Shown here piece by piece: positions 34,001 to 37,000 of a DNA stretch of 64,000 bases (the first letter of the stretch is position 1; each line of letters starts with the position of its first letter). The position numbers are program-made. The stretch comes from Escherichia coli. GTDB lineage: Bacteria; Pseudomonadota; Gammaproteobacteria; Enterobacterales; Enterobacteriaceae. The stretch is taken from NCBI RefSeq assembly GCF_030013595.1, contig NZ_CP122768.1, one strand, 5' to 3'.

Positions 34001-37000
34001 ATCAGTCCGTCAGCAGAAAAATCAGTGCCCGTCATTTCGCAGGTATTTTTCAGTGGCTGACCGGCATTCGTACTGAAAATATACCGCCATTCAATCCGCT
34101 GACAGACGAAGATAATGAACTCATTATGGTTTTTAACGGAGACAAGAATGTACCGACAGACAGTCTTGAGTCACAACCTCTGATTCTTCCGGGCAAGGGA
34201 AAATAAGAGTAATGTTCATCACCAGGTTATGTACGATGAGTTTTCCACTGTTTATAGCAATTATCTTGCTAATAACCAGACAGGAGTAACCAGACCAACC
34301 GAAAACACCGGGGAGGTGATTACCCGCTGGCAGAGGAAATCCGGTTTTTTTTGATGTCAGCCATAACGTGTTTGACAATAAAGCATTATGAAAGGGTGTT
34401 AATGAGTCCATGGGATAATTCATAAAAATAATTTACTGTGTTGTCCTTTTCAAAAGAAATATTCAGAAGATAACCCCTGGCTGACAACCAGGGAAAGGGG
34501 ACATTAACAGTGTTATTATTGGTGGATAAATTATTACTTGTGTGCAGGATACACTAATGCGATATCTACTGATACTGTATGCCAGAATGTTTCCTGCCTG
34601 CTGCTGAAAACGGCAATATCCAGGGCCAGACATATTCACCATTCATATTTCTGCATTTCTGTACAATTTTCTCAGAAAGCGTCTCATCAATTCTTTCACG
34701 CAACTTCTCCTGCTGTCTTAAAATACTTTCGCATATTTCGAAATCATCTTCCTGCATCAGCATTTCGGCGCATTTAATGATTTCTGCCCGTTCATGCAGC
34801 ACAGAGGAATGGTTATAGAGCCAGTTTACAAACAGCAATGCTTCCGGATATTGTCCCCATAATGGTGAGTATGTTGCATAATAATCTTCGGCAGTATCCG
34901 GCCCGGCAGAATAGTTATGCCATACAGCAAGAGGAAATGGATGCAGATTTCCGCACAGCATTTCCGCGATGTAAGTATTTGCCGCAAATCCGCGACGAAA
35001 TGCAGTTGCAGCTTTTACCTGTTCCCCATTAAGAAAATGCAGAAGACCAAGTTCATACCAGTAAGGTGAAAATTCATCAGCATGTTTTTTCAGTACACTG
35101 AAGGCTCGCTCATGATCACCTGTTCGTAACAGTTCTGAACCCAACAACCAGCGGGCACCCTGATTATCTTCAGGATTGTATGCCAGTATTTTATCAGTAA
35201 GCATAACCGCATCCTGATGACGCTGTAAGTGCACATTTGCGAGAATTGCTGCATAAAGCGCGCGCAGATAAGGCCGGTTTTCGGGATGCATCCAGATGAT
35301 TTCACCACTGAAACTTTCCGGGATGAGACGATTACCGGCCGCCAGTCCTTTAAGCGCGGCGTTCAGAGCCTTACGCGGGGCATTCTGCTCCAGAAATGCA
35401 TATGCCAGATGAGCGTGTATATCAATAAAGTCAGGCTCCCGTTGAGCAAGGTGTCTGAGTTTGTTGATGTAACTCGTCTCGCTGATTTCATCAGTGTCGT
35501 ATGCATCAAGCACTTCTTCAAACTCCCCCAGTAATGGGCCAAACCAGGTATCCGGAAATACGAAACGCCCCTGGTTATCGTTCACTTCAAAGCGTAATCT
35601 GTCGTTCATTTTCTGAGCCTGTAAAACGGATGGGGACATAATCTGAAAAGCATAAAAGTCGTGATGTTGTGTATCAAGTCCTGTTTTTGTCCGGGATGAA
35701 TGTTGTTTACAATATCATCGACAGTGATTTTACATGAGAATGAAAATTTATCTTTATCTGCATTCCGGTGTATTGTGAGTTGTCAGCTGAAACAGCATAT
35801 TAATCGATTTTTTTTGTGATGGCGCTGAAATAACGACAGGATGATGATTGAAACTCCAGGTATCAAAATTGTTAGCGGTCCATAACGGTGTGATGTTTTG
35901 AGATTGTTTACAGATGCAATATTAAATATTTTGTCAAAAAACAAAAAATATCTAAAAATAAAGCATAAAAACAAAATTCCTCCGGACCTGGAGGCCGGAG
36001 GAGAATTTGTGGATTGAGAGAAAATATCAGGACAAGTGCTCTTAACCCTGACTCTCTTGCTTAGAAAGCGAATCAATATAATCTGCGTACCACTGCATCA
36101 TTTCACGGCGACCATCGAGATACTGGGCATGATTATAGGTACCCCTGATGGCGTTTTTATCCACATGAGCTAACTGCATTTCAATCCAGGCAGAATTAAA
36201 GCCCTGTTCGTGCAGAATGGTACTCATGGTGTGTCTGAAACCGTGCCCTGTGAGTCTTCCCTTATATCCCAGTAATTCAATGACTTGGTTAATGCTTTCC
36301 TTACTAATTGGCTTGCGAGGATCGTTCCTACCGATAAAGACCAGAGGATGATGTTTTGTGATGGGTTCAAGTTGCTTAAATAGGGCAATGACCTGCTCAG
36401 AGAGCGGCACAATATGAGGTCGCTTCATCTTCATTACTTCTGCCGGAATCTCCCATAATTTTGTCTCAAAATCGATATCCTCCCAGCGTGCGAAACGTAA
36501 TTCTTGTGTTCGTACACCAGTTAACATAATGATCTGAGTAGCTGTCTTAGTGATGATACTTCCGGTATAACCCGCCAGATCGTTGAGGAAGTGGGGAAGT
36601 TCATTAGCAGTAAGAAAGGGTAAATGTACTTTTTTCGGTGTAGCTAAAGCACAGGCAAGATCGGGAGCAGGGTTGTAGTCTGCCCGGCCAGTAACAATTG
36701 CATAGCGGAACACTTCACCACAGCGCTGGCGGACTTTGCGCATTTTCTCCAGAGCTCCACGTTTTTCCATTTTACGTAGTGCTTCCAGTAACTCCATTGG
36801 TTTGATTTCGGCGATAGGGCGTTTGCCAATGTAGGGAAAAATGTCTTTTTCAAAGGTATCAATGATTTCATCACGATAGCGTAATGACCACCGATCGGCT
36901 TTTGACTGATGCCATTCGCGAGCAATGGCCTCGAACGTATTTTTCAAACTCATTTGTTGCGCGATTTTTTCTTCTTTTTTTACCACCCCTGGATCGCCTC

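Follow-up and report, generated by a model that had tools for sequence, protein, structure and literature searches.

A shiA/sisB-type gene for a putative tetratricopeptide-like adaptor in a selC island module of Escherichia coli

The shiA/sisA/sisB genes make up a family that was reportedly named and studied between 1999 and 2009, as ShiA of the Shigella island SHI-2 and as SisA and SisB of uropathogenic Escherichia coli (UPEC) CFT073, the latter by Lloyd and co-workers in 2009. The gene considered here, which very probably belongs to that family, lies on the minus strand at 34566..35609 of a 64,000-nucleotide stretch of E. coli DNA (the window; contig NZ_CP122768.1 of assembly GCF_030013595.1), in a genomic island at selC. 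In the literature, as cited second-hand, deletion of such genes raises, and extra copies lower, host inflammation in animal models. According to secondary sources, including PMC13340028, deletion of shiA in Shigella leads to more early host inflammation, and sisA and sisB suppress inflammation early in murine urinary tract infection (UTI), with deletion in UPEC increasing it. Expression of sisA in the urine of UTI patients and anaerobic induction of shiA have also been described. The island SE-PAI has the gene order integrase-shiA-sulphatase-tia-subAB (PMC3852854). In the LAA island, a 1,044-bp gene named 'tetratricopeptide repeat protein' by the Prokaryotic Genome Annotation Pipeline (PGAP) is SisA, a homologue of Shigella shiA, and it adjoins a phosphoethanolamine (PEtN) transferase gene and an outer-membrane beta-barrel gene (PMC13340028). 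A selC island has also been described in which the first ~2.9 kb, comprising int and shiA, are 99% identical to SHI-2 (PMC6174562). Both the shiA/sisB gene family and the int-shiA-sulfatase-tia module are already known, and the result for the window is mainly a correction. The initial annotation had listed the gene as uncharacterised and as a gap in the functional annotation of the island, whereas the family is named, has published animal-model phenotypes, and is a recognised virulence-associated marker in a known module. PGAP and RefSeq call it merely 'tetratricopeptide repeat protein' or 'hypothetical protein', names in which the link to ShiA and SisA is invisible.

We consider it very likely that the window gene is an intact allele, of expressed type, in the shiA/sisA/sisB family, with Shigella ShiA and UPEC SisB as its nearest relatives, that it is carried as a mobile cassette in an int-shiA-'sulfatase'-tia module at selC, and that it encodes a non-enzymatic tetratricopeptide repeat (TPR)-like adaptor with a core resembling that of Rqc1/TCF25. 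Gene order argues for the shiA-type identity, because the first four genes of the SE-PAI have exactly the order seen in the window. With the primers of Lloyd et al., given in PMC3256949 with a 292-bp product, sisA-F matches exactly at 35368-35387(-) and sisB-R matches with 2 mismatches at 35096-35121(+); the in-silico amplicon is 292 bp, and 100 shuffles gave 0 chance matches. The sisA-reverse primer has no match in the window, and this, together with the protein identities, assigns the allele to the ShiA/SisB branch and not to SisA. With Shigella ShiA represented by a chromosomal S. flexneri protein (P0249) and by a protein from the selC island of an E. coli B derivative (SisB-like), not by GenBank AF141323 itself, the window protein is 92% identical to the former over 347/347 residues and 95% identical to the latter. 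The 27 differences from P0249 are concentrated at residues 302-314 and in the N-terminal third. Identity to a pheV-type, SisA-like protein (P0261; 'ShiA-like protein' in UniRef) is 87%. The published identities to Shigella ShiA are 96.8% for SisB and 83.3% for SisA (PMC13340028), and the latter is reproduced by the 83.6% found between P0249 and P0261. A 347-amino-acid (aa) protein of REL606 is 97% identical to the ShiA of M90T (PMC3256949).

The open reading frame (ORF) initially annotated at 34566..35639 is present on the minus strand and well formed, but its length of 357 aa, obtained by reading from the first ATG, did not hold. The second ATG, at 35609 ('MNDRLRFEV...'), is the start in 52/52 aligned homologues, none of which has the 10 extra N-terminal residues of the longer form. 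PGAP places the start of the identical gene in strain 26561 at the second ATG and annotates 1,044 bp, and no Shine-Dalgarno-like sequence was seen upstream of the first ATG. Together these observations argue for a 347-aa product of 40.2 kDa and pI 5.3, and the 30 nucleotides at 35610..35639 are probably 5' untranslated region rather than coding sequence. A consensus scan predicts a sigma-70 promoter-like site, TTGATA-17-TATGCT, at 35649..35677(-), inside the conserved cassette, and the same hexamers are found upstream of a plasmid copy (L026). A weak terminator-like hairpin is predicted downstream of the gene by the same kind of scan, at 34474..34494(-). Another predicted hairpin, a consensus match at 35979..35994(-) in which CCTCCAGGTCCGGAGG is followed by a T-run, stands after the integrase gene and would separate the transcription of int and shiA. 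By megablast, the gene is present in 1,978/5,426 complete E. coli genomes, in up to 5 copies per genome, and these copies carry the same two labels that PGAP and RefSeq give the family. The ratio dN/dS between allele pairs is 0.11-0.17. The gene is under purifying selection, and given this ratio and the number of genomes that carry it, a chance ORF can be discounted.

The extent of the mobile unit is visible in blastn comparisons. A pheV island whose integrase is unrelated (L003) is similar only over 35705->34195, at 90%, and the plasmid copy L026 only over 35682->34534, while the selC island of E. coli B is similar from the chromosome through int to 34172. From the boundaries with L003 and L026, the gene moves as a ~1.5-kb cassette, at 34195..35705(-), made up of the promoter region, the shiA-type gene, and a small conserved ORF. 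In eight of eight chromosomal copies sampled in E. coli, the gene follows a tRNA-linked integrase and shares its orientation, with a helix-turn-helix (HTH) gene intervening in one. The small ORF always follows the shiA-type gene in the cassette. In the window (34196..34423, minus strand), the stop codon has been lost where the ORF meets the PEtN-transferase gene, and PGAP annotates the ORF as a pseudogene in an identical strain. It is intact at 76 aa (MNYPMDSLTPFH...LIFP*) in L002, L043, and L045. Relative to islands whose shiA is 6-10% divergent, it has only 4 differences in 228 nucleotides, 3/4 of them at third codon positions, and is conserved more strongly than the shiA-type gene itself. 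It could represent a protein, an RNA, or a DNA site.

As judged from its sequence, the product is a soluble, acidic, cytoplasmic-type protein. Its pI is 5.3, its grand average of hydropathy (GRAVY) is -0.40, its Kyte-Doolittle maximum over a 19-residue window is 0.75, and there is no hydrophobic segment; neither a signal peptide nor a transmembrane segment was found in the 347 aa. The Pfam families ANAPC3 (31.6 bits, cut-off 27.2) and TPR_19 (25.5 bits, cut-off 25) match at residues ~129-207, within a region, residues ~120-215, that holds three to four canonical TPR motifs. The AlphaFold2 model (pLDDT 93.6, pTM 0.88) has a beta-hairpin at residues 6-17 followed by 17 helices, so the predicted fold is a small N-terminal beta-hairpin joined to a TPR-like, all-helical solenoid. 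The helical-repeat character given in the initial annotation is borne out by both Pfam and the model, and so is the lack of a recognisable enzymatic motif: no catalytic domain was found in Pfam or NCBIfam, including Pfam at E<=1. Assignment to a housekeeping family, named at the time as the result that would speak against the description, did not come out of the profile and fold searches. A type III secretion system (T3SS) chaperone of the SctY/class II type was considered and rejected, as the match scores 26.1 bits against an NCBIfam cut-off of 70, such chaperones have ~110-170 aa compared with 347 here, and no T3SS genes are adjacent. Conservation in 53 aligned sequences runs over the full length, beyond the TPR motifs. 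The invariant residues include G14, G102, N111, P113, P146, D148, G157, Y185, R205, N211, Y213, and S312, and invariant positions fall within the blocks 'IPExFxGxIxWxxxxNRPYLR', 'NPxDNxGxRxLLG', and 'AATAxRRGFxxNxYIAE'.

All fold matches of the window protein model were of the TPR type, and the best was Rqc1. Rqc1/TCF25 is a subunit of the eukaryotic ribosome-associated quality control complex, the C-terminal domain of which binds the RING of Ltn1/Listerin (through F214/D215 in yeast and F195 in human) and the acceptor ubiquitin (E637/E657), directing the formation of K48 chains. The window protein model has the fold of that domain, in which helical repeats are accompanied by a single small beta-sheet. 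In profile searches, PF04910 (Tcf25) was the sole recurring family other than generic helical-repeat ones, matching 27/96 distant members at E<=0.01. Its cut-off of 24.2 bits is exceeded by P0221 (51.7 bits) and by P0194 (25.2 bits), the latter co-linear over profile positions 28-283. Among close family members, 4/53 match below the threshold (best 2.4e-4). At the residue level, Rqc1 423-485 'NRQFYLAIFRYIQSLAQRGVIGTASEWTKVLWSLSPLEDPLGCRYFLDHYFLL', a segment found with a TCF25 fragment as the query, lines up with 'NRPYLRALYAAILANVHLQRHQDAVMLTDKILAYNPEDNQGARWLLGSELL' of ShiA. The distance from the Asn to a conserved Pro is 36 residues both in Rqc1 'NRQFYLA...SPLEDPLG' and in ShiA 'NRPYLRA...NPEDNQG', and the N-to-D spacing is 38 in Rqc1 (N423-D461) compared with 37 in ShiA (N111-D148). 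According to a 2026 preprint, the Rqc1/TCF25 residues that are conserved most are N423, D461, and P531, and N423 packs on the sole beta-sheet. N111 and D148, the counterparts of N423 and D461 of yeast, are invariant in the 53 sequences, and the model of the ShiA family likewise has one small beta-hairpin. The Rqc1 fragment falls at the expected profile positions in a hidden Markov model (HMM) alignment. Burroughs and Aravind (PMC6514570) inferred a bacterial origin for the TPR module of Rqc1. Terms for ShiA or SisA together with terms for TCF25 or Rqc1 were not found in any one of the ten top-ranked literature matches. We regard true homology between the ShiA family and the Tcf25 superfamily as likely.

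Other searches were less specific. Sequence search of the PDB with the single protein gave nothing past generic TPR matches, and in a profile search of the PDB with the family alignment OGT and CTPR repeats dominated, with Rqc1 absent from the best 60 of 65 matches (E<=10). The Tcf25-positive N-terminal half of P0221 gave nothing in a homologue search, and phmmer against the PDB missed Rqc1. Several points weigh against the adaptor reading and its Rqc1/TCF25-like core. The window protein itself has no PF04910 match in Pfam at E<=1. The HMM score of the Rqc1 fragment is 4.6 bits, compared with 4.4 for the best of 2,000 shuffles, and the C-terminal domain of Rqc1 in 9OFV is an AlphaFold model placed by rigid-body fitting. 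Clustering of neighbouring genes over 40 loci showed no partner gene common to all contexts and so pointed to no client for the adaptor. The phenotype (Ingersoll 2003 and 2006; Lloyd 2009) is taken second-hand from later papers, and in the LAA study hes and part of atoS were removed along with sisA, so that sisA was not isolated (PMC13340028).

We propose that the ShiA-type protein would act as a non-enzymatic adaptor that binds a partner. Binding may be through the invariant polar cluster N111-R112-P113 / P146-x-D148-N149-x-G151-x-R153 / R205-G207...N211-x-Y213...E216, the presumed counterpart of the core that is conserved in the Rqc1/TCF25 (Tcf25-domain) fold. We lean toward a partner inside the bacterium and an indirect effect on host inflammation, because laboratory and commensal E. 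coli have close homologues, and distant ones are found on integrative and conjugative elements (ICEs), transposons, and plasmids of environmental bacteria. Profile searching found 215 clusters (50% identity level) at E<=1e-30, and a locus search from a 10-sequence alignment gave 14 loci, a thin taxonomic survey. Close copies are present in laboratory strains of the E. coli B/BL21 type, and the gene is also common among isolates of commensal and environmental origin. Homologues of 35-57% identity are found on ICEs, transposons, and plasmids, including those of environmental (soil and water) bacteria, and in the Massilia and type VI secretion settings given below, and 75 plasmids carry homologues, in Escherichia, Aeromonas, Serratia, Pseudomonas, Rhizobium, Sphingobium, and others. 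On an SXT/IncC-like conjugative element (Vitreoscilla and metagenomes), the homologue lies between a traJ-like gene and SLT/traL, and on another ICE it adjoins FlhDC-like activators and TraI. In Tn3-family transposons, it stands between divergent tnpA and tnpR, and its overlap with the start of the resolvase gene measures 4 bp in Klebsiella pCAV1344-40 (L025 6001-7577) and 34 bp in Morganella (L010 3325-4901). To our knowledge, passengers inside the transposition module are rare, toxin-antitoxin pairs being the reported exception.

Some recurrent neighbours and fusions were seen in the same survey. An AAA_22-type ATPase gene of ~385 aa directly follows the homologue in two ICE lineages (L011-14, e.g., L011 9179-10327, and L032 4810-5958), and P0113 (513 aa) looks like a fusion of AAA_22 with a ShiA-like domain, the AAA_22 match being weak (E 0.002). 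In P0217, a PRiA4_ORF3 domain (E 9e-16) is fused to a ShiA-like domain. In five otherwise unrelated loci (L044 4954-6294, L026 7424-8764, L018, L031, and L035), found on a chromosome and a plasmid of E. coli, on a metagenome contig, and in two Oxalobacteraceae, the homologue has a GGDEF diguanylate-cyclase gene within ~1.5-3 kb on its downstream side. GGDEF genes are abundant and this co-occurrence may be due to chance, and we judged the AAA_22 and GGDEF neighbours too sporadic to build on.

The company the homologues keep also bears on a doubtful alternative, that the gene takes part in conflict between mobile elements, as a single-gene defence, anti-defence, or immunity function directed at phage, conjugation barriers, or translation-targeting toxins, with the inflammation phenotype as a side effect. 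Several homologues do sit at variable cargo sites, on ICEs as described above, downstream of rng and next to a type I restriction-modification system in Massilia (relatives also follow rng in three other Oxalobacteraceae), in type VI secretion system (T6SS) effector/immunity clusters with HicAB, and near an antirestriction gene on pCAV1344-40. The cassette is self-contained, moves, and has its own promoter-like site, and Burroughs and Aravind (PMC6514570) connect bacterial systems of ribosome rescue and conflict with TPR scaffolds and proteins of the Rqc1 kind. The reference collections did not return the family: PADLOC-DB 2.0 gave no significant match (best DrmC, E 0.034, 11.8 bits), also for four distant homologues, PHROGs gave none, 50,697 phage records held no homologue, and BFVD gave generic TPR matches only. 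The protein has no effector domain and no conserved partner gene, and its contexts are heterogeneous enough for generic cargo.

If the resemblance to Rqc1/TCF25 is taken at face value, a host-acting mimic can be imagined. Once in the host cytosol, to which lysis, vesicles, or some unrecognised path would deliver it, the protein would bind ubiquitin or an E2/E3 enzyme and skew ubiquitin-dependent NF-kB or other innate signalling. Such a mimic would explain the suppression directly, the published phenotype being one of host inflammation, and the host cytosol is where Shigella lives. Rqc1 gave the best fold match, the Tcf25 signal recurs in the family, and the Rqc1/TCF25 C-terminal domain binds both the Ltn1/Listerin RING and acceptor ubiquitin. 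We nevertheless hold this to be unlikely. There is no signal peptide, and the N terminus is a structured beta-hairpin; E. coli B laboratory strains, commensals, and environmental isolates commonly carry the gene, and homologues of 39-57% identity reside on ICEs and transposons of soil and water bacteria. Alignment of N111 to N423 puts residue 1 of ShiA near residue ~300 of Rqc1, C-terminal to the RING contacts F214/D215 by co-linearity, and since ShiA begins there the RING-binding helices are seemingly missing. The basic, ribosome-binding N-terminal domain is also absent from ShiA (pI 5.3). As modelled, the fold supports a protein-binding scaffold and not a full TCF25 mimic. A broader proposal makes ShiA, SisA, and SisB mobile-element-borne bacterial members of the Rqc1/TCF25 fold and derives the anti-inflammatory effect from retained binding of ubiquitin, a ubiquitin-like protein, or an E2/E3, either in the host cytosol after release from lysing or invasive bacteria, or within bacteria in an undescribed ribosome, nascent-chain, or ubiquitin-like conflict pathway of Proteobacteria. 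We regard this, too, as improbable.

Association with recombinases might suggest instead that the protein is an accessory factor that modulates the adjacent integrase or a Tn3-type resolvase, for example in the control of excision or resolution. The position behind the integrase in all eight sampled chromosomal copies, the overlap with the resolvase start in the Klebsiella and Morganella elements, and a Serratia plasmid copy next to a 'DNA invertase' are in keeping with such a role. Known directionality factors, however, are small HTH or AlpA-type proteins, and the window protein has no DNA-binding domain. The cassette is paired with unrelated integrases, its homology starting ~95 bp upstream of the gene and excluding int; the terminator-like hairpin stands between int and the shiA-type gene; and many homologues have no recombinase nearby. 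We consider this role very improbable.

Labels in the literature make ShiA 'a putative quinone reductase' (PMC7545054) or place it under transporters with mention of similarity to a quinone reductase (PMC6174562). There is next to no chance that ShiA is a quinone reductase, another NADPH oxidoreductase, or a transporter: Pfam and NCBIfam show no match at E<=1 to an oxidoreductase, flavodoxin, Rossmann, or zinc-ADH-type nucleotide-binding family, the model is a helical repeat, and the hydropathy values given above exclude transmembrane helices. The 'transporter' label presumably arose by confusion with the unrelated K-12 shikimate permease, which is also named ShiA. Both labels are repeated in reviews, and neither has a basis in sequence or fold.

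The shiA-type gene is flanked, as initially annotated, by a PEtN-transferase-like gene on one side and the selC island's integrase on the other. The attachment site of the island, tRNA-Sec (selC), is at 37530..37624(-) (ARAGORN; Rfam RF01852, 83.8 bits) and is abutted by a P4-type tyrosine integrase gene at 36042..37232(-) with the Pfam domains Arm-DNA-bind_3, Phage_int_M, and Phage_integrase; yicJ/yicI come next. The tRNA-Sec, int, and the shiA-type gene follow in that order, all on the minus strand, and no Rfam family besides tRNA-Sec was found within 31000-38000. Convergent with the shiA-type gene is a PEtN-transferase/sulfatase-family gene at 32704..34206(+) (Pfam Sulfatase, 7e-37, and EptA_B_N; CptA-like in NCBIfam, below cut-off), which is the 'sulphatase' of the SE-PAI according to the published gene orders (PMC3852854, PMC13340028). 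It is preceded by tia at 31783..32529(+), which encodes an outer-membrane beta-barrel protein (Pfam OMP_b-brl) annotated by PGAP as 'invasion outer membrane protein Tia' in a near-identical strain. At 31378..31605(-) there is a 3' remnant of a second, pheV-type integrase gene, cut by IS1, which is a PGAP pseudogene and shares 88% identity with the integrase of L003 at the 3' end. This arrangement suggests that two integrase genes once flanked the tia-PEtN-shiA module, or else that the joining of two islands was followed by an IS1 deletion.

To the left of tia, at ~8824-31361, lies a multiresistance region bounded by IS1, with 99.9% identity to its Tn21-type counterpart in enteroaggregative E. 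coli (EAEC) 042. Its content, by the annotation of 042, is tet(A), the mer operon, tniA/B, IS1326, sul1-qacEdelta1-aadA1-intI1, Tn21-type tnpR/tnpA, a GNAT gene, and catA1. The IS1 copies are at 8824-9595 and 30664-31361, and the tnpR/tnpA genes account for a stretch of 62-65% GC at 28000-29000. In EAEC 042 the region is located at glmS-pstS; in the window it abuts the selC island module. Window positions 1-9000 carry a type I restriction-modification system, hsdR/M/S, as annotated in two strains with 100% identity, VTB97379v and O111:H8 7-58 72A. Strain 26561 (NZ_CP027118) matches the window from ~29162 rightwards (99.6-100%, catA1 to beyond selC), and not leftwards.

About one-third of complete E. 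coli genomes carry the family, as do laboratory B strains and environmental mobile elements. This carriage argues that the primary role of the gene is not host specific, and it argues for caution in typing shiA/sisB as a 'virulence gene.' The Rqc1/TCF25 likeness, with the shared invariant Asn and Asp, provides the first concrete, mutant-testable structural hypothesis for the mechanism of a phenotype described in 2003. That resemblance and the non-pathogen distribution might be new to specialists, and nothing else.

In comparison with the known systems, the gene shares with ShiA of SHI-2 a product of 347 aa and a position right after a selC-linked integrase; in SHI-2 the genes downstream are those for aerobactin, whereas in the window they are the PEtN transferase and tia. 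The diagnostic sisA-F/sisB-R pair that defines the 292-bp product connects the window gene with SisB and SisA of CFT073 and with sisA of LAA. Module I of LAA also has a PEtN transferase gene and an outer-membrane beta-barrel gene as neighbours, but the outer-membrane protein there is Hes, and in the window it is Tia. The SE-PAI has int-shiA-sulphatase-tia in the same order; it differs in being at pheV and in carrying subAB, whereas the window module is at selC, lacks subAB, and continues beyond tia with an integrase remnant, IS1, and then the IS1-bounded Tn21-type multiresistance region. With Rqc1/TCF25 the window protein has ~15% identity, and the ShiA-type gene stands alone on mobile elements of bacteria that have no ubiquitin, Ltn1, or Cdc48. 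Finally, the three to four canonical TPR motifs are a feature in common with generic bacterial TPR adaptors, such as MamA, YrrB, LapB, and the T3SS class II/SctY chaperones.

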